NCBI RefSeq assembly: GCF_003001995.1 | Contig: NZ_PVNB01000019.1 | Span: 29,120-61,119, forward strand | Reading direction: 5' to 3' | From: Orenia metallireducens | Lineage (GTDB): Bacteria; Bacillota; Halanaerobiia; Halobacteroidales; Halobacteroidaceae | DNA length: 32,000 nucleotides | Shown here: in pieces, positions 10,237 to 32,000 of the stretch | How positions within the stretch are numbered: position 1 is the stretch's first letter | Layout of the letters: each line of letters opens with the position of its first letter | Program-made: the position numbers and the translations under genes | The notes under the pieces: model-generated | Seen by the model: only the letters and a program-made list of their open reading frames with translations | Told to the model about the DNA's origin: nothing | Databases searched by the model: none

Positions 10237-10872
10237 CTACATTAATCCTACTAATTTAAAGATTCCTATCCTTAGAATATTTATAGCAGGACTCAATATT
10301 ACTCCAATTCCATTGGTAAATAGTAAAAATAGTAGAATAAAAGGTCCATAGGCTTCTAAATTATAGATAAATTTATTCATACTAGCTGGCAACAATCCCG
10401 CTAATATCTTAGAACCATCTAAAGGTGGTACTGGCAATAAATTAAAGACAGCCAATCCTAGATTTAGATAAATCCCTGTGATAAATAGAGTATTAACGAC
10501 TCTTGGGTCTATTAAAGTATAAAAGAAATTACCTACAAATCTATATAAGAATGCAAAGCCTATAGCTAGTGTTATATTTGATAAAGGACCAGCCAATCCT
10601 ACTAGCATCATCCCCTTTTTACGATCTTTAAAATAACGAGGATTGACCTGTACTGGCTTAGCCCAACCGAATCTACGGGTAATCAGTAATACTAATGTTC
10701 CCATCGGATCTAAATGGGCTAAGGGGTTTAAAGTCAAACGACCAGTCATCTTTGGTGTTGGATCACCTAATAAATCTGCCATCTTTCCATGGGCATATTC
10801 ATGAAAGGATAAAGATAATAACAAAATAGGTATTAATAAGACCAATTCTGCAATTGTATTCACTTTATTCAC
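10237..10872 (-). CDS. Site-2 protease family (peptidase M50) membrane metalloprotease
   Basis: HEYAHG (HExxH) and NLLPVPPLDG motifs in a polytopic membrane protein. GTG start overlaps the upstream stop. Confidence 0.8.
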   Translation of the reverse strand: MNKVNTIAELVLLIPILLLSLSFHEYAHGKMADLLGDPTPKMTGRLTLNPLAHLDPMGTLVLLITRRFGWAKPVQVNPRYFKDRKKGMMLVGLAGPLSNITLAIGFAFLYRFVGNFFYTLIDPRVVNTLFITGIYLNLGLAVFNLLPVPPLDGSKILAGLLPASMNKFIYNLEAYGPFILLFLLFTNGIGVILSPAINILRIGIFKLVGLM

Positions 10873-13498
10873 CCCTCTTTTCTATATAATCTCGCAGATA
10901 TCTCTGCTCTTGTTGATAATTCACAATCTTTCCATCTAATTTGGCCTTCTTAACTGCTTGCAAAGCATCTTGAAAGAAAGGACCTGGTTTATAACCAAAG
11001 TCAATAATATCCTCTCCAGAGACTTTGATATCTATCCAGCGTAGCTCTTCTAAATATAGCTTAACCTTATCCTTTAAAGTAAAATCTTTAATCAATAGTA
11101 ATAGTAAATCTTCAATCGCAAAGCCTTCCAATAAATAATAGATCTCACTATTATCCTCTGCAGCTTTTAACCTACTGCTAAGGCTATCAAAACTTAAAGT
11201 AAAGAATAAGCGATAAGATAGATTCTTATTTAAATTAAACTTCTGATTAAACTCTTTAATCTGTTCATGATTCATCCCCCAGATTAGAACCATCAAATAG
11301 AGTACCCATTCATTAAATTTAAAGGAGAGATTTAAAGTCTTCAACCACTCTAACACATCTACTACTTTAGTGGCTAACTTTTCTTTCTCTTCATTCCACC
11401 GGATATCTGGAGAGATATAACTTAAAATATTCTCCTCTTGTAATAGATTAATAAATTTAATTGGGTACTTATCCTGTAAACCCAGCTGTAATTTACTAAA
11501 AAGTCTATTATTACTTAGCTTCTCTATCACATCTAGATCAACAGCCTGCTTAATCAACTCTTTGGTACGGGGTTCAAATTTAAATCCATAGCGGCTAGCA
11601 AATCTCAATCCTCTAAAGATTCTAGTTGGGTCATCATATAGACTGAAATTGTGTAAGAGTCTAATAACTCCTTGCTCTAAATCTTCTCTGCCATTAAAAT
11701 AATCGACAAGCTGACCAAAGGAGTGACCATTTAACTGAATAGCTAGAGCATTGATAGAGAAGTCCCTTCTAAAGAGATCCTGTTGAATACAACCAAGCTC
11801 TACCTCAGGAAGACTAGCAATTCCAGAATAATACTCAACTCTAGTTGTAGCCACATCTAATTTCATCCCATCCTCTAAGGTCAATACTGCTGTACCAAAT
11901 TCATGATAGATATCAAGCTCCCCTTTTAACTCTTTATTGAGCCTACGAGCAAATTCAATTCCATCACCTTCAACCACCAAATCTAAATCTAGATTGGCTT
12001 TACCCAATAATAGATCACGGACAAATCCACCAACAATATATAGATTATACTCTAACTCCTCTGCTAGAGCACCTGCCTTTTTAAATAGCTGAAGGGTCTG
12101 TTGATCTATTAGTTTCAACCTATCACTGATATCATACCTCTTCTCTTGTACCTTTACTAGACTTCTACCGTAAAGGTGCTGCCTGTTCTTTAAATAATCA
12201 TCCCTACCATAAAAGATTCTCAACAGGTCATTTCTAGTAATAATACCTACCAATTCACCTTCAGAGTCAAGTACTGGTAGGCGCCCAACATTATTCTCTA
12301 CAATAGCATCCTGTACCTCTTTCAAGGATGCTGTTTCATTAATAGTAACTACCCCATTGGACATATAGCCTTTTACGGGAGCATGTAATAAGCCATGCTT
12401 TCTCACCTTATCTATATCATTGCGAGATATGATCCCTATAATCTCATCATCATCTGCAACTATCAATCCAGAGTACCCTTCCTCCAACATAATTTCATCG
12501 GCTTTGCCCATAGTTGTATCAGAGGTTATAGTTCTTACAGGGCTTGACATAATATCTTTAACTAAGACTGCTGGATTGACCCGCTCTTTAACAATACATA
12601 ATAGATCCTCTTGATAATCTAGCAAGTCCTTATCATCTTCGGCTTTTAAATTGGCTGAGGCCGCCCTTGTGTGACCACCTCCACCATAATATTTCAATAT
12701 CTCTGCTACATTGATACTATCATTATTGCTACGACCAATAATCAGTACCTTACTATCATATTTAACCAGTACAAATAAAGCATCAGAGTTATGTAATTCA
12801 TTTAACTTATGGGCTAATAATGAAATATCTGGGACATATTCATCGATCTCTGATTGGAAGATATCGATTTCAAAGCCCTTAATATGAATTGGATGGATAG
12901 AATCCAACAATTTATTGAATAATTGATGTTGCTTTCGGCTCAAAGAGTACTCTATATACTCTTCAACCACTTCCAAGTTTGCCCCTTTCTCCAGTAAGTA
13001 AGCTACTGCCTGAGCATCTTTAACAGTAGTACTCTTATAGACTAAGCAACCTGTATCCTCATAGATTCCTAGAGCAAATAAGGTGGCTTCAAAGGAGGTT
13101 ATCTCAATACCTTTCTTCTTCAACCTACTGACCAGCATAGTCGTAGTTGCTCCAACCTCTTCAATAATTTCCTCGGCATTCTCTAAATTTCTCTGTCGCT
13201 CAAGGTGATGATCATAGATTAATACATCAATCCCATCACTTTTGACTAGTTTAGAAAAAGCACCTACCCTTGAGGCAACTCTAGTATCTACCATAATTAC
13301 TTTAGTAACTTTAGATTTATCTATCTCTTTAGCATATTTAATAGGAATTCTGCCTTTATATAAAGTCGTAAATTTCTTCACATTATTAGTTAACTTACCT
13401 GAAAAGACCATAGTAGCTTGAGGATGTAACTTCTGTGCTGCTACCATAGAAGCTAGTCCATCAAAATCAGTTCTTTGATGACTGATAATTATCTCCAT
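10865..13498 (-). CDS. DHH/DHHA1 phosphoesterase - tandem CBS - CCA-adding/poly(A) polymerase-family nucleotidyltransferase fusion
   Basis: DHH (IYDHH), DHHA1 (GGGGH), two CBS-like segments, and the nucleotidyltransferase head motif GGFVRDLLLG...DLDLVV. I place the start at the ATG at 13498 (MEIIISHQ), preceded by AAGGGAGGAA, rather than the GTG at 13519. Confidence 0.8.
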   Translation of the reverse strand: MEIIISHQRTDFDGLASMVAAQKLHPQATMVFSGKLTNNVKKFTTLYKGRIPIKYAKEIDKSKVTKVIMVDTRVASRVGAFSKLVKSDGIDVLIYDHHLERQRNLENAEEIIEEVGATTTMLVSRLKKKGIEITSFEATLFALGIYEDTGCLVYKSTTVKDAQAVAYLLEKGANLEVVEEYIEYSLSRKQHQLFNKLLDSIHPIHIKGFEIDIFQSEIDEYVPDISLLAHKLNELHNSDALFVLVKYDSKVLIIGRSNNDSINVAEILKYYGGGGHTRAASANLKAEDDKDLLDYQEDLLCIVKERVNPAVLVKDIMSSPVRTITSDTTMGKADEIMLEEGYSGLIVADDDEIIGIISRNDIDKVRKHGLLHAPVKGYMSNGVVTINETASLKEVQDAIVENNVGRLPVLDSEGELVGIITRNDLLRIFYGRDDYLKNRQHLYGRSLVKVQEKRYDISDRLKLIDQQTLQLFKKAGALAEELEYNLYIVGGFVRDLLLGKANLDLDLVVEGDGIEFARRLNKELKGELDIYHEFGTAVLTLEDGMKLDVATTRVEYYSGIASLPEVELGCIQQDLFRRDFSINALAIQLNGHSFGQLVDYFNGREDLEQGVIRLLHNFSLYDDPTRIFRGLRFASRYGFKFEPRTKELIKQAVDLDVIEKLSNNRLFSKLQLGLQDKYPIKFINLLQEENILSYISPDIRWNEEKEKLATKVVDVLEWLKTLNLSFKFNEWVLYLMVLIWGMNHEQIKEFNQKFNLNKNLSYRLFFTLSFDSLSSRLKAAEDNSEIYYLLEGFAIEDLLLLLIKDFTLKDKVKLYLEELRWIDIKVSGEDIIDFGYKPGPFFQDALQAVKKAKLDGKIVNYQQEQRYLRDYIEKRGE

Positions 13499-13555
13499 GT
13501 TTCCTCCCTTTAAACTCACTTTTTTTATAATTTAGAAATTATCACATTAAAATTT

Positions 13556-13774: not shown

Positions 13775-15352
13775 CTATAATTCATACCCTTTATGATACT
13801 TAAAGTCCTTAATATAAAATTTTAAGCCTTGCTTTTTAAGCAGTTGCCCTGTTTTTTGAGCTGAAGCCATAGTCTTAAAAGGACCTAACTGTACTTTATA
13901 AGTCCCTTCATTTACAATATCAGCTTCAAAACCTTTTTTCTTTAATTCTTGCGAGAAATTTCTAGCATTCTCTTCTTTATCAAAAGCACCAACTTGAATT
14001 ATAAAAGCTTTAAGCAAATCATCATTAGATGCCTTTTGGCTAACTAATAACAGTTCTTTGTGATCCTGTTCTTTCTTTAAGCTGATATTTTCTTGGTTAT
14101 CATTAATATTTTCTGTCTCTATAGAGGGCTTCTTATCTTGTTTTTTAGTTGGAGTATCTAAGCCACTATTATCATTAATAATCTTAGGAGTAATAAAGAT
14201 AATCAACTCTCTCTTTTCACTTTCAAAGTTCTTTTGACTAAAGAGCTTGCCTAAAATAGGTAGATCACCTAACAGGGGAACTTTAGACATAGTTTCATAC
14301 TCTTTTTCTTGAATCAATCCACCAATAGCTAAAGTCTCTCCACTATTGACCTTGACCTTAGTTCCAACCTTCTTGATACTAACTGTAGGATACCGGGTCC
14401 CATTAATCTCAACCCAGTCTAAAAAGGTGGTTATCTCTGGCTGTAAATCGATAAAAATATTATTGTCATCAGTTATCTTAGGGGTTATCTTCAAATCAAT
14501 CCCGATATTCTTAAACTCTATCTCCTGAGAGGTCTCATCCTCATCTGTTGTCTGGAGTGTTAAAATAGGAATCTCATCACCGATATTGATATTGGCCTCT
14601 TCACCTTCAATCGTTGTAATCTTTGGATTTGCCAAAACATTGGCTACCCCTGAACTCTCTAAAGCCTCTAAAGAGACACTATAATTGAAGTTTAGATTCC
14701 CAATCTTTAAATTCGGCGTAGTACTTGAACTCCCATCATCTACCTTGCCCTCACCTGAAAACTCCCAATTGACCCCTAAATCCTTTAACCCTGTATGGGA
14801 TATCTCTTCAAAACGAACCTGTAAAGCAATCTGCCTTCTAGAGTAATCTAAGGCAGCAATAGTCTCTTCAATTTGATCGAAATTACTTTCATAAGTTGTA
14901 ATAATTAGACTATTAGTGCGCTGATTAATCTTGATTGCCCCATCATCGATTAAATGGTCTAAATTCTCTTTGATCTTTTCTGGGTCAGAGTTTTTGAGTT
15001 TAAAGACTCTAGTTAGCTTAGCTTCATAATTCTTCTTTATCTTCTCAGTAGGAGCAACAAAGATGGTATTATGAATAATTTTATAGCTTAAACCATTGGT
15101 CTTAGTTAGAATATCCATCGCTTCTAAGAAGGACACATTGTCTAAATAAAGGGTAATCTTTCCCTCTATCGAGCTATCAGTGGCTATATTCATTTCTGCT
15201 GTCTCTGCCAAGATTCTAAAGGCCTCTATTAAGTCCATATCCTTAAAATTGAGATTAATCTTATCTTCCTTAGATAACGCCTGTCCAGTAGAATTAAATA
15301 AAAATAATAGCAGTAATAGTAGTATAAATTGATTAATCCTCTTTCTTTTAAT
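13775..15352 (-). CDS. pilQ: Type IV pilus secretin PilQ with C-terminal SPOR domain; predicted non-canonical (ATT/ATC) start
   Basis: Secretin C-domain signatures (VLANPKITTIEGEEANINIGDEIPI; LAIGGLI...SKVPLLGDLPILGKLF...RELIIFITPKII). The last ~78 aa resemble a SPOR repeat. The ORF track starts at the ATG at 15238, but the open frame continues upstream and encodes IKRKRINQFILLLLLLFLFNSTGQA (a Sec signal peptide) behind AAGGAGG. See the finding. Confidence 0.85.
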   Translation of the reverse strand: MKRKRINQFILLLLLLFLFNSTGQALSKEDKINLNFKDMDLIEAFRILAETAEMNIATDSSIEGKITLYLDNVSFLEAMDILTKTNGLSYKIIHNTIFVAPTEKIKKNYEAKLTRVFKLKNSDPEKIKENLDHLIDDGAIKINQRTNSLIITTYESNFDQIEETIAALDYSRRQIALQVRFEEISHTGLKDLGVNWEFSGEGKVDDGSSSTTPNLKIGNLNFNYSVSLEALESSGVANVLANPKITTIEGEEANINIGDEIPILTLQTTDEDETSQEIEFKNIGIDLKITPKITDDNNIFIDLQPEITTFLDWVEINGTRYPTVSIKKVGTKVKVNSGETLAIGGLIQEKEYETMSKVPLLGDLPILGKLFSQKNFESEKRELIIFITPKIINDNSGLDTPTKKQDKKPSIETENINDNQENISLKKEQDHKELLLVSQKASNDDLLKAFIIQVGAFDKEENARNFSQELKKKGFEADIVNEGTYKVQLGPFKTMASAQKTGQLLKKQGLKFYIKDFKYHKGYEL

Positions 15353-17177: not shown

Positions 17178-18035
17178 CTACTCTTCTCTTAAAGCCAGCC
17201 CCTTTACTACAGAGTATAAATTATCCTCTAGCTTAATAGCCTCTATCCCAATCTGATCCTCTAAATAGCTCTGCAGCCCTTTAAAATTACTACTGCCTCC
17301 AGTCAAAAAAAGCTTAGCTACCCTTACCTTATACTCTGACTGAAAATAATCTATCGATTGATAGATTTGGCTCCTTAATTCCTCTAATATAATCCTTAAC
17401 TCTTCCTTAGTAACCCCTTGTTTCTTATAACGTTCTGCTTGCTCAGAGGTGATTCTATTGATAGTAGCTAATTTCTCAGTAATATGCCTTCCTGCAAAAT
17501 CAAAACTCCTTAAAAAGATCAGCCTTCCACCTTGGGCAATAATTAAATCTGTGGTCTTATCGCCAATATCTATCAATGATACCGTCTCACTCAAATCAGG
17601 ATATTGGCTATATAAGTATCTGATATTGGCATGAAATTCCGTTTCTACAACTTTAGGTTTTAGCTTTAAAGCCTTTAGCTGCTCAAAACGCTCTTTAATC
17701 AAAGGCTTCTCAACCCCATATCCTATCACATACTTCTCTTGTAAAGATTCTACTACCTCATGCTGAATCACCAAATTCTCATCGGCAAATTCAAGCTCTA
17801 CCATCTGTTCAATTTCTTTTGTTGATAGGTCATCGGGTATTTTGATAAATTTTATTTTAATATCTTTAGTACTGATGGAAGTGATAGTATCTTTAGAAGT
17901 AAAATTTTTCAATTCTTCTATAGTTAGCTGCTTGTATTCTCCTGTTTTAAATTTATTCTCTTTAAATTCAGCTATCTTAATAGAGTTGCTGATTTCTATC
18001 CCTAATCTTCCTGAATTTTTAAAGATATTGAACAA
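17178..18035 (-). CDS. pilM: PilM, actin-like pilus assembly ATPase-fold protein
   Basis: N-terminus LGIEISNSIKIAEF, central IDIGDKTTDLII and C-terminal LFLTGGSSNFKGL motifs typical of the PilM/FtsA fold. I prefer the TTG at 18035 (MFNIFKNSGRLGIEIS), 6 nt after GGAGGT. The ORF-track start at 18107 overlaps the upstream gene. Confidence 0.8.
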   Translation of the reverse strand: MFNIFKNSGRLGIEISNSIKIAEFKENKFKTGEYKQLTIEELKNFTSKDTITSISTKDIKIKFIKIPDDLSTKEIEQMVELEFADENLVIQHEVVESLQEKYVIGYGVEKPLIKERFEQLKALKLKPKVVETEFHANIRYLYSQYPDLSETVSLIDIGDKTTDLIIAQGGRLIFLRSFDFAGRHITEKLATINRITSEQAERYKKQGVTKEELRIILEELRSQIYQSIDYFQSEYKVRVAKLFLTGGSSNFKGLQSYLEDQIGIEAIKLEDNLYSVVKGLALREE

Positions 18036-18093
18036 AATCTCACCTCCAAATCTAAAATATCCAATTAATATTAAATTCTTATACTTATCAATC

Positions 18094-19596
18094 TTATGGA
18101 TAAACAAATATTAGTCCCGCTTCAGCCGTTGTTAAATGCTTATCTTTATTATTGGCTATCTCTTCTTGACTTCTAGCATAATCCCAAACCCTTAAATCTT
18201 TAATATAGCCATGCCATTTTTCACTATAATCAGGATTGGCTCCAATTACTAATTCATTTGTATTGATAGGAAGAGAGGTTTGAATATTACCTGCACTCTT
18301 TTCTTTGCTAGCATTTACATAAAATTGGTAGCTTCCATTTCCATTTCCATTTCCATTTCCATTTCCATTTCCATTTCCATTTCCATTTCCATTTCCATTT
18401 CCATTTCCATTTCCATTTTCTTTTCCTTTTTCAGCAGGTTGATCATTCTCCCAATAACCTTCATAAACAAAATTTCCATTTTGGTCATAATATCTTCCAT
18501 AACCTGCCTCTCCTTGATTCCATTCACCTTCATACCTCAAGCGACCATTTTGATCATATAATTTGCCATATCCATCATAAACCCCGTTATCCCATCCACC
18601 TTCGTATCTCTTTTTACCATTTTGATCATATACAATTCCCTCACCATCAAGTTTCCCTTTATTCCATCCACCTTCATATCTCATCTTTTGATTCTGGTCA
18701 TATAAGGTTCCCTCTTCATCATATTCGCCATTATCCCATTGACCTTCATATCTCAAATGATTATTTTGATCATATGACTTTCCATATCCACTATAAGTTA
18801 TATCTTCTCGTGCCCCTTCATCATATACTATCTCTTGATTTTGATCATATAAAGTTACTGGACTATAAGATATATCTTCTAAATTATCTTTATATTTTAT
18901 TGGACCATTTGGCGGATAAAGAACATCACTACTACTATTACCTCCTCCACTTCCACTATCTGCTTGAAATTCATATACTACTGCTATATGAGTCCACCCA
19001 GATAAATCAAGTTTAGAGGTTCTTACTGTTTGAGCACCACCATTATTTTTAGTATAGCTATCTACAGCTAGCTTAGAATTTTTGTCTATATAAACTTTAA
19101 AGATACCCCTTCTACTTAATAAAGTAATAGGGAAATTAGCTTTCTCATCCACCTTAACCCATGCTTCGATAGTAATGGCATTACTTATATCAAAGTCACT
19201 ACGATAATCTATTCTTTCATGATCATTTACTCCATCAAAATAATTGCTTATTTTTTTCTTAATCTGTATACTTTTGCTTATATCTTCTATTATTCCAGTA
19301 CTTTTAATTAGCAAATAATCGTCAACTAATTTAACCTCATCAATTCTATAGTCTCCTTCTCCTAAGCTTTGTAGTTCAGTTGTAATAGTACCCTTATCAT
19401 AGCTAATTAATGCTACTTCTACGCCACCCTCTGCCAATAATTTTGCTTTCTCTATTTTTTCCTCTTTTTCAGTCTGATTAATAGTACTATAAATAATATT
19501 ATTCATAGTGGTAATTAAAGTGATAGCTACAGTCATAAGTATCAAGACCAATAATAAAGCCGAACCTTCTTCTTGCTTAATTTGATTATAAATCAT
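18094..19596 (-). CDS. Large PilX-like minor pilin: LamG-type lectin fold interrupted by six MORN-type repeats and an (Asn-Gly)14 tract
   Basis: N-terminus EEGSALLLVLILMTVAITLITTM (PilX_N/GspK-like hydrophobic helix, no G|F cleavage site). LamG/laminin-G_3-like halves: FDGVNDHERIDY...ITIEAWVKVD...WTHIAVVYE and YQFYVNASKE...LVIGAN...WHGYIKDLRVWDYARSQEEI. Between them lie residues 211-421, with six ~24-aa YDQNGxxRYEGxWxxGxxDGxG repeats. Confidence 0.75.
   Translation of the reverse strand: MIYNQIKQEEGSALLLVLILMTVAITLITTMNNIIYSTINQTEKEEKIEKAKLLAEGGVEVALISYDKGTITTELQSLGEGDYRIDEVKLVDDYLLIKSTGIIEDISKSIQIKKKISNYFDGVNDHERIDYRSDFDISNAITIEAWVKVDEKANFPITLLSRRGIFKVYIDKNSKLAVDSYTKNNGGAQTVRTSKLDLSGWTHIAVVYEFQADSGSGGGNSSSDVLYPPNGPIKYKDNLEDISYSPVTLYDQNQEIVYDEGAREDITYSGYGKSYDQNNHLRYEGQWDNGEYDEEGTLYDQNQKMRYEGGWNKGKLDGEGIVYDQNGKKRYEGGWDNGVYDGYGKLYDQNGRLRYEGEWNQGEAGYGRYYDQNGNFVYEGYWENDQPAEKGKENGNGNGNGNGNGNGNGNGNGNGNGNGNGSYQFYVNASKEKSAGNIQTSLPINTNELVIGANPDYSEKWHGYIKDLRVWDYARSQEEIANNKDKHLTTAEAGLIFVYP
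18334..18417 (-). repeat. Perfect hexanucleotide tandem repeat (AATGGA)x14 encoding (Asn-Gly)14
   Basis: I counted 14 uninterrupted CCATTT units on the plus strand. They are in frame within the 18094-19596 CDS (residues 394-421). Confidence 0.95.
18442..18852 (-). repeat. Six diverged ~72-nt tandem coding repeats (MORN-type)
   Basis: The YDQN register recurs at residues 250, 275, 299, 323, 347 and 370. At DNA level the motif TTGATCATA recurs about every 72 nt. Confidence 0.75.
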
Positions 19597-21383: not shown

Positions 21384-22616
21384 TTAATACCCTTGTGACA
21401 TCTTAAAGATTGGTAAGATAACTGAAGCTACAATCCCACCAATTCCAAAGGTTAAAAAGATAATCAAGCTCGGCTCCAATAAAGCAATCATTCGAGCAAA
21501 CTTCTCCTCCACCTCATCTTGATAAAAGTCGACAATATCATTGAGTTTTTCTTCTAAACTCCCAGTATTCTCAGCAGTCTGTATCATCTGTAACGCAATA
21601 TCAGGAAAGACATCCTGCTGCTTGAGAGCTGTAGTGATATTGAAGCCATCCTTAATCTTCAGCCTTGCCTTGTCTAACTTGTAGCGGATAGCCCTATTGG
21701 TGATATTCTGGTTGACTATCTCCATTCCCTGTAAGAAAGGGATTCCAGTTCTTTCTAACAGACTTAGATTCTTAGCAAAGATAATCAGTGAATTCTCTAG
21801 AATAAAACCCTTTAAAATAGGTATCTGTAATAATAACTTATCAATCTGATATCTTCCCTTGTCAGTTCGATAATAATAGTAGGTCGATAATAATAATAGA
21901 ATTATACCTAATAACAAAAGCCACCAATAACTGCTCATCAAGTTACTGACTCTCAATAAAATCTTAGTTGGCAAAGGTAGCTCAACATTGAGTTTCTCAA
22001 AGGTCTTCATGAAGTTAGGCAAGACCTTGACCATCATCAAAATCAGTACAATTATTGACGAACCCATAGTAATAATTGGATAAGTAATATTGGAGATTAT
22101 CTCTTTTCTCTTCTCATTCTGATCCTTGAAATAATCTGCCAAGTTCATCAAAGTCTCATCTAAAAATCCCCCTGTCTCACCAACCTCTACTAATCTAATA
22201 AAGTAATTAGAGAAGATATTGGGGGATTGCCTCAAAGCAGCAGAAAAGCTCCTTCCCTTCTCAATCTCTATCGCTATATCTTTAACAGCCCTCTTTAAGC
22301 TCTTATTCTCCACCTGCTTTGCCAAGGACTGCAAGCCGTTAACGATTGGAATTCCTGAGCTAATCATAGATGAGAGCTGGCGACAGAAGATATATTTATC
22401 CTTTAAACCTACTCGAGCTGGTAAAATCTCAATAGAATTCAATTTATCAAGATACCCTTTCAAGCTAAACCCCTTCTTCTCCACTTCTAAGCCCAATACC
22501 AATAAGCCCATAGCCTTTAATTTGGTCAGTGCCTCCTGCTTCGATTGAGCTTCAATTTGCCCTGACTTCTTCCTTCCCGATGAGTCTCGAGCTTGATATT
22601 GAAATTTTTTAGCCAA
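21384..22616 (-). CDS. pilC: Type IV pilus platform protein PilC (GspF family)
   Basis: 410 aa. Two GspF-type repeats, each followed by TM segments. TTG start preceded by a G7 run acting as SD. Confidence 0.9.
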   Translation of the reverse strand: MAKKFQYQARDSSGRKKSGQIEAQSKQEALTKLKAMGLLVLGLEVEKKGFSLKGYLDKLNSIEILPARVGLKDKYIFCRQLSSMISSGIPIVNGLQSLAKQVENKSLKRAVKDIAIEIEKGRSFSAALRQSPNIFSNYFIRLVEVGETGGFLDETLMNLADYFKDQNEKRKEIISNITYPIITMGSSIIVLILMMVKVLPNFMKTFEKLNVELPLPTKILLRVSNLMSSYWWLLLLGIILLLLSTYYYYRTDKGRYQIDKLLLQIPILKGFILENSLIIFAKNLSLLERTGIPFLQGMEIVNQNITNRAIRYKLDKARLKIKDGFNITTALKQQDVFPDIALQMIQTAENTGSLEEKLNDIVDFYQDEVEEKFARMIALLEPSLIIFLTFGIGGIVASVILPIFKMSQGY

Positions 22617-22760: not shown

Positions 22761-24449
22761 CTAACTAATATCAGCTACTCTCAATACCTCTTCAATACTG
22801 GTTATTCCTTGATTAACCTTATCTAATCCATCTCTAAATAAGGTAATCATTCCTTCTTCAATCGCAACTTGTTCAATCTTATCTGAAGGATCCTTAGCGA
22901 CGATAGATTCCTTGATCTTAGGAGTAACCTCTAATAATTCATGGACAGCAGTTCTCCCTTTATAGCCAATCTGATTACAGAAGTCACAACCATCTGCTTG
23001 AAGTGCTGTGAAATCAGCAGTCAAATAATCATTAACTAGATGATACTCTGTACTATCAACATCACTACTACATTGAGGGCATAGCCTTCTAACCAATCGC
23101 TGAGCAACTACCCCTATAACAGCATCAGCAATCAAGAAGGGTTCTACTCCCATATTAACTAAACGGCTAATTGCTCCTGCAGCACTATTGGTATGGAGGG
23201 TACTCAAGACTAAATGCCCTGTTAAAGCAGCCTGAATAGCAGTCTCAGCAGTCTCCTTATCTCTTATCTCCCCTACCATGATGATATCTGGATCTTGCCT
23301 TAAGAATATTCGCAATACTCTGGCAAAGGTCATATCTTTTTTAGGATTAACAGGGGTCTGAGTAATCCCTTCAATCTGATACTCCACAGGATCTTCAATA
23401 GTTAATATATTCTTAGTATCTTCATTTAGATAATTTAAGGCTGTATATAAAGTTGTTGTCTTTCCACTACCAGTAGGACCTGTCAAAAGTATCATCCCAT
23501 TTGGTTTCTTAATTAACTCTTTGAACTTTCTCAAATTATCTGCCGAAAAACCGATTGAATTAAAGCTCAATTTCAGATTTGTGTTATCAAAGATTCTAAT
23601 TACAACCTTCTCCCCTAACACAGAAGGTAGAATCGATATTCTTAGATCTGCTTTAATATTTCCAAACTCAATATTTATCCTTCCATCTTGGGCCTTTCTC
23701 CTCTCAGCTATATCTAGACCACTCATAACCTTAATTCTAGATACTAAAGCCATATGGATATTCTGATGGAAGACCATCTCAGTCTGTAAAACACCATCAA
23801 TTCGATACCTGACTCTTGTCCCCGTCTCCATAGGTTCAATATGGATATCACTGGCCTTATGGCGAATCCCTGTTACTATTATCTGATTAACAGTCTTGAT
23901 AATAGGTGTATCCTCTAACTGCTCCTGTAATAAGCTCTGATCTATATCATCATCGTCAACAACCTGTTCAAAGGCAATCTCATCGATGCTATCAATAAAC
24001 TCCTCTAACTCCCTCTCTCCCAAATAAGTCTCAATCAAGCTATCTATATTGCTAGGAGTAGTAATCCGCGGCATTACCTCTAAATTGGTCTTCTCCTCTA
24101 TCTCATCAACAGCTACAATATTTTGAGGGTTCTCCATAGCTAAGATCAACATCTTACCCTCTCTTCTAATAGGAAAGACCCTATTCTCTCTAATATACTC
24201 TTCATCTAAAATTCCAATTATCTCATCTTTAATATTCTTTTTATCACTCTCTGTCAACAATAAGATACCTAACTGGTGATTTAAAGAAGTTGCAATCTCC
24301 TCTTCTGTAACTAGACCTAACTCTACTAATATCTGCCCTAACCTCTTATTTGACCTTTTCTGTTCCTTTAATGCTTCTTGTAAATCTTGCTCATTTATTA
24401 AATTTTCATCTATTAATATATCGCCTAAGCGCTTTTTATTTAATCCCAT
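22761..24449 (-). CDS. pilB: Type IV pilus assembly ATPase PilB (GspE family) with N-terminal MshEN-type domain
   Basis: Walker A GPTGSGKTTT, Walker B DPDIIMVGEIRD, His box GHLVLSTLHTN, tetracysteine CPQC...CDFC. The N-terminus carries two RLGxxLLxxGLLxxxxLxxxLxxQ-type motifs. Confidence 0.92.
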   Translation of the reverse strand: MGLNKKRLGDILIDENLINEQDLQEALKEQKRSNKRLGQILVELGLVTEEEIATSLNHQLGILLLTESDKKNIKDEIIGILDEEYIRENRVFPIRREGKMLILAMENPQNIVAVDEIEEKTNLEVMPRITTPSNIDSLIETYLGERELEEFIDSIDEIAFEQVVDDDDIDQSLLQEQLEDTPIIKTVNQIIVTGIRHKASDIHIEPMETGTRVRYRIDGVLQTEMVFHQNIHMALVSRIKVMSGLDIAERRKAQDGRINIEFGNIKADLRISILPSVLGEKVVIRIFDNTNLKLSFNSIGFSADNLRKFKELIKKPNGMILLTGPTGSGKTTTLYTALNYLNEDTKNILTIEDPVEYQIEGITQTPVNPKKDMTFARVLRIFLRQDPDIIMVGEIRDKETAETAIQAALTGHLVLSTLHTNSAAGAISRLVNMGVEPFLIADAVIGVVAQRLVRRLCPQCSSDVDSTEYHLVNDYLTADFTALQADGCDFCNQIGYKGRTAVHELLEVTPKIKESIVAKDPSDKIEQVAIEEGMITLFRDGLDKVNQGITSIEEVLRVADIS

Positions 24450-26250: not shown

Positions 26251-27453
26251 TTATAATTTTATACTATAACCTTGATTCTTTAAAATAGATATTACTTCAG
26301 AAATATGTGCTGAATCTCTAGTCTCCAATACTAACTTTACCTCTGCCTGTTTTAGAGAAATATCTGGATTCATACGGTCATGATGAACTGAAATGATATT
26401 GGCTCCACTTCTACCAATAATACCTGCTAGCCTCTCTAAAGCACCTGGAATATCAGGTAATAAAGTTGTAAAGGTCAATCTTCTTCCGGCTTTCATCATT
26501 CCCCTATTAATAATAGCAGAAATCATATCTAAGTCAATATTACCACCACTTAAAATAACAGCAAGCTTCTTTTCTTGTAAAGAAGCTTTATTATTTAATA
26601 CTGCAGCCAATGCTGTTGCTCCTGCACCTTCGACTATTAATTTTGCCCTTTCTAATAAGATAGAAATAGCATAGGCTATCTCTTCATCATCTACTGTTAC
26701 AATCTTATCTACATACTTAGATATAATTTCATAAGTTAACTTACCTGGTCTTTTGACAGCAATACCATCGGCAATTGTATTTACTTCTGTTAAATCTATT
26801 GGCTTCCCTGCTTTTAAGGAAGCTTTCATAGAGGCTGCCTTATCTGCCTCTACTCCTATTACCTTTATTCTAGGATTTATCTCCTTAATAGCTATGGCTA
26901 TACCAGCTAATAATCCTCCTCCACCAACAGGAGCAATAACTGCATCTACTTTAGGTAAGTCTTCTAAGATCTCTAATCCAATAGTTCCTTGACCAGCAAT
27001 TACATCTAGATCATCAAAAGCTGGTATAATAGTTGCCCCTGTCTTTTGAGCATACTCCAATTCTTTTTGATGAGCTTCATCATAGGTCTCACCACTTAAA
27101 ATAACCTCTGCTCCATAACCTCTAGTAGCCTTGATTTTAGCAATAGGAGCACCTTTAGGCATAATAATAGTTGAGTTAATTCCTATTTGGGTAGCTGCTA
27201 GTGCTACACCCTGAGCATGATTGCCTGCTGAAGCTGCTACTACTCCCTTTTCTTTCTCTTTAGAGCTTAAGTTGCTTATCTTGTTATAAGCCCCCCTTAA
27301 CTTAAAAGAGCCAGTCTTCTGTAAATTTTCTAGCTTCAAATAGACCTGATTACCACTTAGCTGACTAAAAGTTCTTGAACTGTCTAAATTGCTTCTCTTG
27401 ATTATCCCTTTCAATCTATTTTGAGCATCTTTAATATCTTCTAACCCCACCAT
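26251..27453 (-). CDS. ilvA: Threonine ammonia-lyase (threonine dehydratase), short form with one C-terminal ACT-like domain
   Basis: PLP-lysine motif GSFKLRGA, glycine loop GGGGLLAG, C-terminal regulatory domain. 400 aa. Confidence 0.88.
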   Translation of the reverse strand: MVGLEDIKDAQNRLKGIIKRSNLDSSRTFSQLSGNQVYLKLENLQKTGSFKLRGAYNKISNLSSKEKEKGVVAASAGNHAQGVALAATQIGINSTIIMPKGAPIAKIKATRGYGAEVILSGETYDEAHQKELEYAQKTGATIIPAFDDLDVIAGQGTIGLEILEDLPKVDAVIAPVGGGGLLAGIAIAIKEINPRIKVIGVEADKAASMKASLKAGKPIDLTEVNTIADGIAVKRPGKLTYEIISKYVDKIVTVDDEEIAYAISILLERAKLIVEGAGATALAAVLNNKASLQEKKLAVILSGGNIDLDMISAIINRGMMKAGRRLTFTTLLPDIPGALERLAGIIGRSGANIISVHHDRMNPDISLKQAEVKLVLETRDSAHISEVISILKNQGYSIKL

Positions 27454-27688: not shown

Positions 27689-28270
27689 TTACTCTTTAAT
27701 AATTCCATTAAAATAGATCTCCATAATATCATCTTTAATCTCCTCAACCTCATCAGCTGAAAAATCTTTTCCAAACATAATCCTATGAGCAGAAGTTATA
27801 TAAATCATACCAAACAAAGAGATAGTAACATTAAGTGGATTCATCTCTTTAAGCTTCTTCTGCTCGATACCTTCTATAATTATATCTTCAATTATTTCTG
27901 TATACTTATCCATTATCTCTTTAATCTCATCCTTAAATTTAAGTTTATGCCCCCAAACTTCTCTGGTAAGAAATTTATGGAATTCGCCATGATTTTTATA
28001 AAAATTCAATTGGACAGTTATTATCTGTTCTATCTTCTTAATTGGATCATCTAATTTATTTATCTCTTTTTTTACCTTCTCTAATACATCATTTAAACCA
28101 AATTTAATTAAAGAAGAGATCAAATCCTCTTTATTCTTAAAATAACGGTACAGGGTTCCTTTACCTATCCCAGCTTCTTATGCAATCTCTTGCATAGTTG
28201 TAGCAGATGTCCCCTTTTTAGCAAACTTCTGTATAGCCGCTGCAAATATCTTCTCTTTTTTGGGATGCAT
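27689..28270 (-). pseudogene. TetR/AcrR-family transcriptional regulator interrupted by an in-frame TAA at codon 31
   Basis: Translation from the ATG at 28270 (GAGGAG SD) gives MHPKKEKIFAAAIQKFAKKGTSATTMQEIA*EAGIGKGTLYRYFKNKEDLISSLIKFG... The stop (28180-28178) sits inside the canonical TetR HTH (IAxxAGIxKGTLYRYF). The ORF-track 144-aa ORF is only the C-terminal ligand-domain remainder. Confidence 0.8.
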
Positions 28271-28408: not shown

Positions 28409-30262
28409 TTAAAAATTATAATTTAAATTAATCTTAATAATAGGATCATTGGCATTTTGATCATAGGATAAATAACCATCTAACCTCACAGGTTTAAGTC
28501 CTAACAGATAAAAATCACCATTAAGACCTATACCATAGGCCATAGATGATACTTCATCGTTTAAATAATCAGTAAACAAATATGCTCCAATATCCTTAAT
28601 ATATACCATCTTCGTTAATTCAATCGCTTTTACAAATTCATAGGTATAGGCATAATCTAAAGAGAGTTGAAATTTAGCAAACTTATCTGGTTCATCTCCT
28701 CGATAAATAATAGGTGATTCTATTAAATTACTATTATTAAAGACCAATTTAGGCCTTAAATCCCACCTATCATTTAATTTAAAGGAGGTCTTTTTAGAGA
28801 TTAAGATTTTAGGTTCTTCCCCTGCTTCATCAAAGAAAACATCTACTTCACCACTTAAATTACATCTATTGAGTTCTAGCTTATATCTAGCATCTGCAAA
28901 GACATACTTATTATTATCTATAACCCCTAAGCCAGTTCCCCAAAAATAATTATCTTTATAGTATCTAATCCCTAGCTCACCATCATCTCTTTTCTCAGAT
29001 TCAATTCTAGTCTTAGCTATCATATCAGTATTTTTAGTCAACTTTTTCCACCTAAACTCTGCTTCTAAATCTTGAGAAGCATTATTAGTTGCTAAAAATT
29101 TGAAATCAACACTATCTTTATCAAATTCAAAGCCATATTGGGGGATATTTATATAACTTCTTAATAAATCTTGCTTAAAAAGAGAATAATCTTGTCCAAA
29201 ATGGATAATTGGGTTAAAGTGAAAAGAAGGAACTAACATCCTATCATACTTTATATCATTAAATTCTTGTGCTACATTTAATCTCTTTCTAGCTGGATGC
29301 CTCTTTAAAGGAATCGTTTTGGAATTTAATCCTTCTTTTATCTTACTCATCTTCTCTTTAGTAGCTTGATACCCAATCTCGACCAACTCAGCTGCACTAC
29401 TAAAATCAAAAAAAGAATAGTCTCCAACTCTAGCTTCAATTATTACATCTGAATAATTTTCAATTATTCTTCTATTATTATTTTGTGATACTATATCTAC
29501 ATATCTGTTAACTATCTTATCTGGGTTTTCATAGCTATCATGAATCAGCTCAGACTTAACAGTAGTAGCAATTACAAAGTCTGCTCCTAATGCCTTAGCT
29601 GCTTTTGCAGGAGAATTCTCTAAAATCCCAGGGTCTGCAAAATACTTCCCCTCCATCTGATAAAGTGGGAAGAAATAAGGAATAGCATAAGAGGCTTGTA
29701 TTACTTTAGAGATTCTATTAGTAGTGATCAGGTATTTATTACCACTATCTAATTCTAAAGTTAATAAGGCTGTAGGTATAGGAAAATCTTCTAACCTCTT
29801 ATAAGGTGCTATATCCTCAAGAAATTTATTAACCTTACTAGTTCCTAAAATATAATCATCATTCATAAAGTTAATATCTAATAATTTGGCAAAGGGGACA
29901 TTAATGATGATCTCCTCAATCTGCTCAATAGATATTCCACTCCCATACATAGTCCCCACAATTGACCCCATACTGGTTCCTACAATCAAATCAATTGGAA
30001 TATCCTCTTCTTCTAAAGCTTTAATCACCCCTATATTAAAGAATGCCTTAGCCCCTCCACCTGTCAGTGCTACTGCAACAGTTGGCTTTGAAAGTGATTC
30101 AAACCTCTGATAATCCTCTATTAAATATATCTCATCATCTTTAATCACTTTAGTTAAACCTTTATCTTGCTTAAAAGCTGCATAACCACTATTTGAGTTA
30201 AAGAGTATCAGCAATAAAAGCACTAAGATTAAATGTTTTTCTCTTAACACAGTAGCATTCAC
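28409..30262 (-). CDS. Secreted patatin-like phospholipase fused to a C-terminal outer-membrane beta-barrel (PlpD / type Vd-like)
   Basis: Signal peptide (LILVLLLLILFNSNSGYA|AF). Patatin motifs GGGAKA (oxyanion), GTSMG (GxSxG) and a DPG Asp motif. C-terminal ~230-280 aa with alternating amphipathic pattern ending ...INLNYNF (terminal aromatic beta-signal). The start may instead be the second GTG at 30250. Confidence 0.65.
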   Translation of the reverse strand: MNATVLREKHLILVLLLLILFNSNSGYAAFKQDKGLTKVIKDDEIYLIEDYQRFESLSKPTVAVALTGGGAKAFFNIGVIKALEEEDIPIDLIVGTSMGSIVGTMYGSGISIEQIEEIIINVPFAKLLDINFMNDDYILGTSKVNKFLEDIAPYKRLEDFPIPTALLTLELDSGNKYLITTNRISKVIQASYAIPYFFPLYQMEGKYFADPGILENSPAKAAKALGADFVIATTVKSELIHDSYENPDKIVNRYVDIVSQNNNRRIIENYSDVIIEARVGDYSFFDFSSAAELVEIGYQATKEKMSKIKEGLNSKTIPLKRHPARKRLNVAQEFNDIKYDRMLVPSFHFNPIIHFGQDYSLFKQDLLRSYINIPQYGFEFDKDSVDFKFLATNNASQDLEAEFRWKKLTKNTDMIAKTRIESEKRDDGELGIRYYKDNYFWGTGLGVIDNNKYVFADARYKLELNRCNLSGEVDVFFDEAGEEPKILISKKTSFKLNDRWDLRPKLVFNNSNLIESPIIYRGDEPDKFAKFQLSLDYAYTYEFVKAIELTKMVYIKDIGAYLFTDYLNDEVSSMAYGIGLNGDFYLLGLKPVRLDGYLSYDQNANDPIIKINLNYNF

Positions 30263-30275
30263 CCCCCAAGTTATG

Positions 30276-30304
30276 AAAAGACCCTTAAATTTAAGGGTCT
30301 TTTT
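30276..30304 (-). terminator. Hairpin after the RND permease gene
   Basis: AAAAGACCCTTAAATTTAAGGGTCTTTT. T-runs on both sides (bidirectional type). It ends only 13 nt before the patatin start. Confidence 0.6.
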
Positions 30305-30313
30305 ATAATTTAC

Positions 30314-32000
30314 TTAACTATCAACAGGCATATTTTTATCAATATTAATATTATTATAGTTATATTCTTTATACTTGATATTAAAGACTATCGAATAAAC
30401 TACAGGAACTGCGATAAGAGTTATCAATAGACCAAAGGATAATCCAAAGATTAAGGATACTGCCATCCCCCCAAATAAAGCATCACCACTAAACCAAAGG
30501 GGTAATAGACCACAGATTGTTGTGGCACTGGTCAAAAAGATTGATCGCAATCTCCTTTTAGCAGCCTCTAAAATAGCATCCTGTGGAGTCCTATTAAATT
30601 CATCTAGCTCTATACCAATTCTATCAATTAACACAATCGAGTTGTTGACTATTATTCCAACCAAAGATATTAGACCCAATATCTCCATAAAACCAAAAGC
30701 CTTTCCTGTCACTAATAAGCCAATTGCTACTCCTACTATTGTAATGGGAACTATTAAGATAATAGTCAAAGGTTTCTTATAAGAGTTGAACTGAATCACA
30801 AGCAATAATAATATAACCAATGCAGTGATAGGTAATTGGGCTCCAATAGATTCATTGGCTTCTGTTGAACTCTCATACTCCCCACCAAAGGCATAACTAT
30901 ATCCTGCACCCCAATTTGCCTGCTCTTTATCAAGCCATGGCTTTAATTGATTATTTACCTCTGTAGCAGTGATACCATTAACAGTATCAGCTTTAACGGT
31001 AATAGTTCTAATACCATCCCTTCTATATATCATAGATGGCTCCCATAAAGCCTTGATCTCAGCTATCTGCTTTAAAGGAACTGATCTACCTGTTCTAAGA
31101 GAGTAAACTTTAGTTGTTTCTAATGTAGATATATCTACATTACTACTATCTTTGTCCCTTAAAACTACTGGTATAATATCATCATCTTTTCTATACTCTG
31201 TCAATTGCACACCATCTAAGACACTTAGTAACGAGACAGCTACATCTCTATTACTCAAACCAGCTTTCTCTAATCTATCTTGGTCTATATCAATTTTTAA
31301 CTTCTTAGTTCTTAGCCCCCAATCATCACTGATATCCTCTACTCCATTAATAGTTCTTAATTTATCTTTGACTGAGTGGACTATATCATAAAGCTTATCC
31401 ATCTCCTTACCTGATACCCTAATTTGAATCGGTTTACCGACTGGCATAATCTCCAATCTGGCAGCTTTAACCTCAGTATCAGGGAATTTATCGATAGTAT
31501 AACCTTCCAACTTAGGAATCAGCTCTTCAATCACATCAACAGAGGTGGTGTTAATTAAAAAGTAGATATATTCAGGACTATTTAACTCAGCACTATAAGC
31601 TAAAGTAAACCTTGGAGCTCCTTGCCCAATAAAGGTTCCCCAATTCAATATTCCTTCATCTTTATACTTTTCTAGCGTTCCACCAGCCAATAACTGCTTG
31701 AAGAAATTAACCTCTTCTTGTTCTGGTTTTACTTTTAATTGCTCCTCAATATACTCATCTATATCTTTAGCAACCTCTTCTGTTCTTTCAATCGAAGTCC
31801 CTTTAGGTAATTGAACCTCATAGGTCATTACCGTTTTCTTGTCTTTAGGCATGAATATTTTGGGAACAAGTCCCATCCCTTTTACTCCTGAGAAGATTAT
31901 CAGAAGCACTAAAATAACAAATGCTATTTTATGTTTCATTAGAGTTAACAATATTCTATTATGAACTCGATAGACCTTACCATCATACGCCTCTTCTTTC
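30314..32000 (-). CDS. RND (AcrB-family) efflux transporter permease, C-terminal ~560 codons; the N-terminus lies beyond the right window edge
   Basis: The ORF-track start at 31951 is an internal TTG. The frame stays open to position 32000 (KEEAYDGKVYRVHNRILLTLMKHK...). TM helix, then a large periplasmic loop, then a five-TM bundle, as in the second half of AcrB-like proteins. Confidence 0.8.
   Translation of the reverse strand, partial: KEEAYDGKVYRVHNRILLTLMKHKIAFVILVLLIIFSGVKGMGLVPKIFMPKDKKTVMTYEVQLPKGTSIERTEEVAKDIDEYIEEQLKVKPEQEEVNFFKQLLAGGTLEKYKDEGILNWGTFIGQGAPRFTLAYSAELNSPEYIYFLINTTSVDVIEELIPKLEGYTIDKFPDTEVKAARLEIMPVGKPIQIRVSGKEMDKLYDIVHSVKDKLRTINGVEDISDDWGLRTKKLKIDIDQDRLEKAGLSNRDVAVSLLSVLDGVQLTEYRKDDDIIPVVLRDKDSSNVDISTLETTKVYSLRTGRSVPLKQIAEIKALWEPSMIYRRDGIRTITVKADTVNGITATEVNNQLKPWLDKEQANWGAGYSYAFGGEYESSTEANESIGAQLPITALVILLLLVIQFNSYKKPLTIILIVPITIVGVAIGLLVTGKAFGFMEILGLISLVGIIVNNSIVLIDRIGIELDEFNRTPQDAILEAAKRRLRSIFLTSATTICGLLPLWFSGDALFGGMAVSLIFGLSFGLLITLIAVPVVYSIVFNIKYKEYNYNNINIDKNMPVDS

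Follow-up and report, generated by a model that had tools for sequence, protein, structure and literature searches.

A POTRA-less patatin-barrel protein in the diderm Firmicute Orenia metallireducens, probably a stripped-down relative of PlpD

We analyzed a stretch of 32,000 nucleotides (nt) from Orenia metallireducens (RefSeq assembly GCF_003001995.1, contig NZ_PVNB01000019.1, positions 29,120 to 61,119 of the forward strand), here called the window, and examined one of its genes, which encodes a patatin-like phospholipase followed by a C-terminal beta-barrel. The open reading frame (ORF) occupies 28409..30262 on the minus strand, stop codon included, begins with GTG and encodes 617 amino acids (aa) in the ORF listing, exactly where a preliminary description of the same DNA had placed it. 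The best reading of the protein, in which we have moderate confidence, is an outer-membrane-anchored phospholipase of PlpD (patatin-Omp85) descent, inserted by the beta-barrel assembly machinery (BAM), with the lipase kept in the periplasm and not secreted. The preliminary description had assigned to it the layout of the PlpD-type autotransporters. One part of this comparison stands, namely the order of the parts, the homologous lipase and a barrel with 16 predicted strands. The other part falls away, since neither a POTRA module nor a match to the Omp85 hidden Markov models (HMMs) was found. The protein is probably a stripped-down variant of the PlpD kind and not a canonical type Vd member, and an autotransporter is unlikely.

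Lipase, barrel and linker

The patatin-like phospholipase domain covers residues ~61-314 (29321..30082; like all parts of the protein, on the minus strand), including a PlpD-type C-terminal extension at residues 237-314, as delimited by Pfam, a profile match to the PDB, Foldseek and hhalign. The Pfam model Patatin (PF01734) matched residues 65-222 with an E-value of 1e-27 and 98.1 bits against a cut-off of 27.7, and a scan with NCBIfam returned patatin-type matches below threshold only. The catalytic set named in the preliminary description is present in the translation, and its key residues are invariant in an alignment of 69 family members. The oxyanion-hole motif GGGAKA lies at residues 68-73 (30044..30061), with G68, G69 and G70 invariant and A71 conserved in at least 90% of the sequences. 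The nucleophile elbow GTSMG with the catalytic Ser97 is located at residues 95-99 (29966..29980), where G95, S97, M98 and G99 are invariant, and the catalytic Asp motif DPG at residues 210-212 (29627..29635), where D210 and G212 are invariant. An active Ser97-Asp210 lipase is predicted as the natural reading of this intact active site.

The closest PDB relative of the 69-member profile is the passenger of PlpD (5FQU/5FYA), with an E-value of 1.1e-44 over profile positions 56-306, followed by VipD with an E-value of 2.9e-10. In the profile alignment to the PDB, GTSMG falls on the GTSMG of PlpD and DPG on its DGG. When the N-terminal half was compared by hhalign to 25 proteins composed of patatin, POTRA and Omp85 parts, a probability of 100% and an E-value of 5e-55 were obtained over 287 columns, and this match extends past the Pfam patatin domain into residues 237-316. 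Two independent AlphaFold2 (AF2) runs were performed, one of the full-length protein on 69 sequences and one of the barrel only on 29 sequences. Compared with 5FYA in Foldseek, the modelled patatin domain reached a template modelling (TM) score of 0.85, normalised to the target. As judged from these comparisons, the lipase half is specifically PlpD-like. It is also the best-conserved part of the protein, with an information content of 2.85. A patatin of the CapV-like type that serves defence in cyclic-oligonucleotide-based antiphage signalling systems (CBASS) was ruled out, for the NCBIfam score of 33.7 is far below the 200-bit cut-off and the protein carries a signal peptide and a barrel.

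The C-terminal part, residues 348-617 (28412..29221), is predicted to form a 16-stranded outer-membrane beta-barrel in which long loops alternate with short turns. The full-length model has a mean predicted local distance difference test (pLDDT) score of 89.9 and a predicted TM (pTM) score of 0.85, and the barrel alone a pLDDT of 92.1. DSSP assigned the same 16 strands with identical boundaries to both models, between residues 344/348 and 616. The connections from odd to even strands comprise 12, 6, 6, 2, 7, 21, 4 and 6 residues, and those from even to odd strands 2-4 residues; this alternation denotes the usual topology of outer-membrane proteins, with both ends of the barrel in the periplasm. 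Foldseek matched the isolated barrel to outer-membrane-type barrels only. The last strand, IIKINLNYNF (28412..28441), resembles the BAM beta-signal with its C-terminal aromatic residue: F617 is 90% conserved, and the final residue is F or Y in all 29 aligned barrels. The two models thus bear out the C-terminal barrel ending in NLNYNF that the preliminary description had proposed, and answer its question about the number of strands with 16. The C-terminal domain possesses no Pfam or NCBIfam model.

Between the two halves lies a basic linker, residues 315-347 (29222..29320), with a short helix at residues 331-338 and the invariant R341 in a KYDR motif, as read by DSSP from the two AF2 models. 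From the end of the last patatin helix (287-314) to strand 1 it measures 33 residues with a single helix of 8 residues. The HMM and structure check for a POTRA module, suggested in the preliminary description, was carried out. The POTRA models PF07244 and PF08479 gave no match at E<=1 in the window protein and none at E<=10 in 29 family members, and the beta-alpha-alpha-beta-beta unit is absent from residues 315-347 of the models, where there is too little space for one. According to the models and profiles, the POTRA module is absent and the linker stands in place of the helix and POTRA of PlpD. Since POTRA was tested and is absent, the protein is not filed as a patatin-Omp85 or type Vd member. 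The type Vd-like membership proposed earlier is not upheld, as the 29 members gave no signal of PF01103, PF19143 or PF07244 at E<=10.

The true start of translation is probably the second in-frame GTG, at 30250, which would yield a product of 613 aa. This start is favoured because a GGGGGG Shine-Dalgarno run lies 11 nt upstream of it and because the orthologues in two relatives, a metagenomic one with 85% identity (locus L054) and Orenia marismortui (locus L056), begin at the equivalent position. The G-rich run is kept in both loci, and the product of O. marismortui has 613 aa. At the N-terminus, a Sec-type signal peptide was read by eye at residues 1-28 (30179..30262). The sequence M(N-A-T-V)LREKH-LILVLLLLILF-NSNSGYA/A, in which the slash marks the predicted cut after GYA, displays a basic n-region, a hydrophobic core of 11 residues and small residues at positions -3 and -1, and no lipobox Cys was seen in it. 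In the AF2 model residues 4-23 are helical and residues 26-32 are of low confidence (pLDDT<50). The Sec signal peptide of the preliminary description is kept here as a prediction.

Ancestry of the barrel

In Omp85 barrels the tip of loop 6 bears the motif (V/I)RG(Y/F), strand 13 bears (F/G)xDxG and strand 14 a Gly, the last described for TamA and BamA; together they form a signature in which the loop-6 Arg makes a salt bridge to the strand-13 Asp and stacks on the Phe (Maier et al., PMC4490367). Candidate equivalents were found in the barrel studied here. The longest loop, with 21 residues, is loop 6 (residues 510-530), which connects strands 11 and 12. Loops 1 and 6 alone are conserved, and loop 6 reaches an information content of 2.06 compared with 0.83-1.17 for loops 2, 3, 5, 7 and 8. 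It contains the motif SPIIYRG (residues 517-522, 28697..28714), a candidate for the (V/I)RG(Y/F) lid, in which P517, Y520 and R521 are conserved in at least 90% (R521 in 90%) and G522 in 100% of the sequences, so that SPxIYRG is near-invariant; the residues flanking R-G differ from the Omp85 motif. On strand 13, F563-T-D565 (28568..28576) is a candidate for the (F/G)xDxG lock, with F563 and D565 invariant. Gly577 (28532..28534), likewise invariant, may correspond to the Gly on strand 14 of TamA and BamA. When the C-terminal 300 residues, which include the linker, were aligned, seven columns proved invariant, and G522, F563, D565 and G577 account for four of them. The spacing between R521 and D565 is 44 residues versus 42 in FhaC (R450-D492, PMC4490367). 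This pattern of conservation suggests an Omp85 lid-lock formed by R521-G522, F563/D565 and G577.

Several results weigh against an Omp85-derived barrel and against the proposal built upon it. Pfam and NCBIfam at E<=1 found nothing on the C-terminal 300 residues of the window protein, and 29 barrels scanned with Pfam at E<=10 yielded no consistent match and neither PF01103 nor PF19143. By hhalign, in local and global mode and with several maximum-accuracy (MAC) thresholds, the barrel matched the 25 patatin-Omp85 proteins with a probability of 0.1-0.2% only. A HMMER profile of the barrel, run against 1.84 billion representative proteins, retrieved its own family and no remote relatives; the matches formed 39 clusters, all of them patatin plus barrel or fragments thereof. 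The TM scores of 0.52-0.55 to TamA and BamA barely exceed the 0.49-0.50 obtained for PgaA and OccK, and the FxD on strand 13 is without the final Gly of FxDxG. Two further points concern export and location: the signal peptide for Sec and signal peptidase I is a prediction judged by eye, and the linker of 33 residues could in principle pass through a pore.

An account that fits the negative comparisons is an independent fusion, in which an unrelated 16-stranded barrel was joined to a PlpD- or RssA-like patatin in an ancestor of the diderm Firmicutes, the likeness to the lid-lock being convergent or coincidental. The protein would still function as an outer-membrane-anchored lipase. Of the competing explanations this one is the most probable, though we regard it as unlikely. 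Every sequence or profile comparison with Omp85 stays at chance level, as it would expect, and the E-value order of Foldseek puts the barrels of PgaA, OccK and PelB above TamA. The missing Gly of FxDxG also agrees with it, as does the conservation of loop 1, which is not a described feature of Omp85. Against these stand the invariant residues in loop 6 and strands 13 and 14, which follow in the right order and with an FhaC-like spacing from R to D. The hhalign alignment of the barrel to a patatin-Omp85 protein, statistically insignificant as it is, is nonetheless colinear: IYRG falls on the loop-6 motif NLSGY of that protein and FTD on its FDD. Omp85 barrels give the highest TM scores, namely BamA of F. 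johnsoniae (0.55), TamA of P. aeruginosa (0.53) and the TamA and BamA barrels of E. coli (0.52), and also the lowest root-mean-square deviations. Moreover, the attached lipase is of the type otherwise joined to Omp85 barrels. Several longer patatin-barrel proteins are also below the Pfam threshold for Omp85 or wholly missed, and divergence of the barrel is therefore common in this lineage. Descent from Omp85 with loss of POTRA is judged likelier than an independent fusion.

Foldseek searches with the isolated barrel were dropped as a means of recognizing Omp85, because Omp85 barrels were not separated from other barrels of 16-18 strands. Four proteins of 538-552 aa from G+C-rich sources (P0081-P0084) form a sister family and possess a signal peptide, a patatin domain and a beta-rich C-terminal domain of ~230 aa that ends in GLKF or GLRF. 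They share weak colinear similarity with the barrel at both of its ends (E 0.008 and 0.02), and no Pfam match was found in their C-terminal domain. These proteins may represent a smaller-barrel variant; as a bridge to Omp85 they were discarded, since they show no similarity to it.

Compared with PlpD of Pseudomonas aeruginosa and FplA of Fusobacterium nucleatum, the protein has the same succession of signal peptide, patatin and C-terminal 16-stranded barrel. The lipases are clearly homologous, with a GGGxR/K oxyanion hole, the GTSMG serine and a D(G/P)G aspartate (DPG here, where the aligned sequence of PlpD has DGG), and the candidate lid-lock residues are found at the same topological places. 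The differences are the lack of POTRA and of the long linker helix, instead of which the basic linker of 33 residues is present, and a barrel of ~270 residues that escapes PF01103, PF19143 and profile-profile detection. As the preliminary description had noticed, the protein is shorter than PlpD: members of the family have ~610-620 aa whereas patatin-Omp85 proteins have ~720-900 aa, a difference of ~100-300 residues. In addition, the family is restricted to diderm Firmicutes. PlpD has been described to form homodimers and to swap strands.

That an Omp85-type barrel can exist without POTRA is known from the 'noNterm' Omp85 proteins (Heinz and Lithgow 2014, PMC4104836). However, POTRA-less Omp85 barrels are known as bare barrels only (PMC4104836) and are seen by the Omp85 HMM, whereas here a catalytic domain is attached and the HMM is blind. 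With TamA, BamA and FhaC the barrel would share 16 strands, a long conserved loop 6 with xRG, the strand-13 F-x-D with comparable R-to-D spacing and the strand-14 Gly, and the best TM scores belong to TamA and BamA. It differs from them in much shorter loops, in the absence of POTRA and of significant sequence similarity, and in its motifs, which read (I/V)YRG(D/S/x) in place of (V/I)RG(Y/F) and FxD without the final Gly. The barrel presumably acts neither as an insertase nor as a translocase.

Host, distribution and possible function

The host is a diderm Firmicute of the Halanaerobiales, a lineage that has BamA. Diderm Firmicutes comprise three lineages, Halanaerobiales, Limnochordia and Negativicutes (PMC10665443), and the BamA-TamB-Skp cluster as well as the PilQ secretin occur in all Halanaerobiales examined (Antunes et al., PMC5007114). 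The window itself encodes a secretin at 13775-15238 (minus strand), inside a type IV pilus cluster, and close relatives have a TolC-like outer-membrane efflux protein (OEP) gene in the efflux operon upstream of the patatin-barrel gene. A host without outer membrane or BAM machinery, which by the preliminary description would have spoken against the barrel, is not what was found. The apparent paradox of such a barrel in a "Firmicute" therefore disappears, and the idea of an artefact in a bacterium without outer membrane was ruled out. From its aromatic C-terminus (F/Y) and the presence of BamA at the lineage level, the protein is predicted to be a BAM-dependent outer-membrane protein.

A search of 5.8 billion proteins retrieved ~80 full-length homologues with 33-100% identity and ~590-690 aa, for which PF01734 alone is recorded. 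The named homologues all belong to Halanaerobiales, including Orenia marismortui (73%), Halanaerocella, Halanaerobacter, Selenihalanaerobacter, Halonatronum, Natroniella, Halanaerobium and Halothermotrichaceae, and three isolate genomes contain two paralogues each. A scan with one genome per species added metagenome-assembled genomes (MAGs) labelled Hydrogenispora and Limnochordia. One MAG labelled Chitinophagales (L025) carries a full-length member with 36% identity, whose identity to the window protein and whose match boundaries are like those of the Halanaerobiales MAG copies L024 and L028; the label of the MAG may be a binning error. Apart from this MAG, the family as defined by sequence is restricted to diderm Firmicutes. 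The databases name its members "patatin-like phospholipase family protein" or "NTE family protein", with no annotation of the barrel. A full-text literature search for patatin together with Halanaerobiales yielded only a general survey of secretion systems, where T5dSS was not modelled.

In the mechanism we propose, Sec would export the protein across the inner membrane of the diderm Firmicute, and the BamA machinery would insert the compact 16-stranded barrel of ~270 residues by way of its C-terminal aromatic beta-signal. The N-terminal ~290 residues would act as a PlpD-type patatin phospholipase or lysophospholipase (Ser97-Asp210), joined by the basic linker of 33 residues straight to strand 1. 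The barrel would be a very divergent Omp85-type barrel that has retained the lid-lock and lost POTRA. The lipase would stay in the periplasm, kept at the periplasmic face of the outer membrane, and may hydrolyse outer-membrane glycerophospholipids or lysophospholipids for envelope lipid turnover. A periplasmic orientation is the most likely one, because strand 1 starts on the periplasmic side after a short linker and because the patatin domain of PlpD is periplasmic. In vivo the latter was found exclusively in the periplasm, and no FplA was detected at the surface (PMC11116518). The physiological role probably involves outer-membrane lipids, and the substrate given above is likewise only probable.

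If the protein were a true autotransporter in type Vd style, the barrel would export the patatin domain through its own pore, to be displayed or released, and the lipase would attack the lipids of other cells or scavenge lipids from the environment. We consider this rather improbable, and somewhat more so than an independent fusion. The order of passenger and barrel is that of PlpD and FplA, which were initially taken to be secreted (Salacha 2010, cited in PMC4104836); the linker, if extended, is long enough to span the membrane; and two paralogues per genome would suit diversified exo-enzymes. The secretion mechanism implied in the preliminary description is nevertheless not supported, in view of the periplasmic patatin of PlpD, the failure to detect FplA on the surface (PMC11116518) and the short linker. 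BamA and TamA barrels are closed outward (PMC4104836), and the barrel studied here conserves the candidate lid-lock residues. Ahead of strand 1 there is a helix of only 8 residues, in contrast to the plug helix H1 of FhaC (PMC4490367) and the long helices of type Va proteins. Furthermore, conservation within the protein is highest in the patatin half, and the gene is found in housekeeping chromosomal contexts. Type Va autotransporters have a 12-stranded barrel, a long helix spanning the pore and passengers of the GDSL type. Lipases and esterases of this class, such as EstA, resemble the window protein in that a single chain begins with a hydrolase passenger and ends with a barrel, but differ from its 16 strands, short helix and patatin fold.

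That the protein is an enzyme dedicated to the lipid asymmetry of the outer membrane, a functional analogue of PldA or MlaYZ made of a single polypeptide, appears the least probable of the alternatives and quite unlikely. The barrel would give mislocalised phospholipids of the outer leaflet access to the lipase; being Omp85-derived, POTRA-less and no longer folding or translocating proteins, it would pass these or surplus phospholipids of the outer membrane to the lipase through a lateral seam or its lumen, and the fatty-acid products would feed the FadR-like TetR regulator and the neighbouring exporters of the resistance-nodulation-division (RND)/MMPL type. Halanaerobiales lack the Mla components altogether, and for lineages of this kind a degradative route has been put forward instead (PMC10665443). 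A precedent is MlaYZ, where a periplasm-facing lipase is paired, sometimes fused, with an outer-membrane channel (PMC10374164). The family occurs throughout Halanaerobiales, with two paralogues in three isolate genomes, and its genes are repeatedly adjacent to RND/MMPL, DUF1329 (LolA-like), DUF1302-like and YsiA/FadR-type TetR genes. However, most members do not share a conserved neighbourhood, and between the gene and the RND operon there is a hairpin that looks like a terminator; the reading as a whole is purely inferential. PldA (OMPLA) is a 12-stranded barrel with the active site in the barrel. The window protein is similar to PldA and MlaY-MlaZ, which degrade outer-membrane phospholipids in Proteobacteria, in that a lipolytic activity, here a predicted one, is attached to the outer membrane, and a functional analogy is possible in a lineage that lacks Mla. 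The folds are unrelated; MlaY is an alpha/beta-hydrolase lipoprotein.

Genomic surroundings and biological meaning

The patatin-barrel gene is situated between an RND pump gene and a disrupted TetR gene, as the preliminary description had stated. Upstream, the 3' half of an AcrB-type RND permease gene (30314..32000, minus strand) continues past the end of the window; a truncated pump was ruled out, since the ORF simply goes on beyond it. In relatives this is the last gene of an operon encoding the OEP, a membrane fusion protein (MFP) and the RND permease. Downstream, the gene of a TetR/FadR-like regulator (27689..28270, minus strand), identified by Pfam and NCBIfam, contains an in-frame TAA at 28178-28180. 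It forms codon 31, between the helices of the helix-turn-helix (...MQEIA*EAGIGKGTLYRYF), where L054 has GAA. The regulator, of the YsiA/FadR type, is intact in relatives with 193 aa in L054 and 189 aa in O. marismortui. The TAA stems either from one G-to-T nonsense substitution or from an error in sequencing. If the change is real, the regulated genes, possibly including the adjacent RND operon, may be derepressed.

The gene order OEP, MFP, RND, stem-loop, patatin-barrel, TetR, RidA and EamA is present in both L054 and O. marismortui. The stem-loop follows the RND stop codon and precedes the patatin start (30271..30308, minus strand; -16.7 kcal/mol, z -5.3), and is kept in structure but not in sequence in the three genomes (-16.7 to -18.9 kcal/mol, z -5.2 to -6.2), its counterparts being located at ~5949-5987 of L054 and ~5951-5979 of L056. 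It looks like the terminator of the efflux operon. As it lies ~20 nt before the start of the patatin gene, transcription of this gene must either read through it or begin at a promoter within the 3' end of the RND gene.

Elsewhere in the family, a conserved operon was sought across the loci and not found, the neighbours being unrelated in most members. In two loci (L058, 1-4854; L060, 19-4906) the patatin-barrel gene adjoins an MMPL/HAE3-type RND gene, a DUF1329 (LolA-like) gene and a DUF1302-like or other gene, with or without TetR, and in two others (L004, 3472-9651; L007, 4-5661) divergent TetR-OEP-(MFP)-RND operons. Another locus, L038, is among the Halobacteroidaceae members with neighbours of the hydrophobe/lipid-exporter type. 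The association with exporters of the RND superfamily and a fatty-acid-type regulator is recurrent within Halobacteroidaceae and is not a conserved operon. Operon conservation was dropped as a clue to function, as the adjacency of RND and TetR genes is limited to the Orenia lineage and some Halobacteroidaceae paralogues. In Halonatronum saccharophilum (L060, 7222-8478), a gene for a 418-aa patatin without barrel was found ~370 nt downstream of the patatin-barrel gene.

Other genes of the window were observed as well. A threonine dehydratase (IlvA-like) gene at 26251-27453 (minus strand), assigned from the translation alone, lies between TetR and RidA. It is absent from the same interval of L054, where TetR is directly followed by RidA, and denotes a small strain-level indel. 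RidA plausibly acts on enamine products of the dehydratase. The secretin at 13775-15238 is composed of Secretin_N and Secretin domains and a C-terminal SPOR peptidoglycan-binding domain, and such a SPOR-tailed PilQ may tether the outer membrane to the cell wall in this diderm Firmicute. The pilus cluster around it includes PilM (17178-18107), PilC/T2SSF (21384-22616) and PilB/T2SSE (22761-24449). A protein of 500 aa with a Laminin_G_3 (concanavalin-like lectin) domain is also encoded in the cluster (18094-19596, minus strand) and may be a large minor pilin or a tip adhesin. A fusion protein of 884 aa (10865-13519, minus strand) unites DHH and DHHA1 phosphoesterase domains, two CBS domains and a poly(A) polymerase/CCA-adding head with an RNA-binding domain.

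To our knowledge, no Omp85 relatives other than the PlpD-type proteins carry an enzyme. The model of "type Vd secretion" was overturned by the finding of a periplasmic lipase in 2024 (PMC11116518), and a natural minimal version, made of a lipase, a linker of 33 residues and a barrel of 270 residues, would show which parts of the architecture are essential. Such a compact patatin-barrel could also serve as a model for structural work, and a new domain family could be defined from the C-terminal alignment made here. The protein adds an unannotated outer-membrane component to the diderm Firmicutes, conserved in Halanaerobiales and Limnochordia, and the outer-membrane biology of these bacteria bears on the transition from diderm to monoderm envelopes. 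It is a concrete candidate for outer-membrane lipid maintenance in a lineage that has lipopolysaccharide (LPS) and no Mla. If the lipid-homeostasis reading is true, no smaller Omp85 scaffold would be known, the barrel would exemplify the recruitment of Omp85 to lipid handling in Terrabacteria, and the protein would be the missing outer-membrane lipid-homeostasis device of the Mla-less Halanaerobiales.

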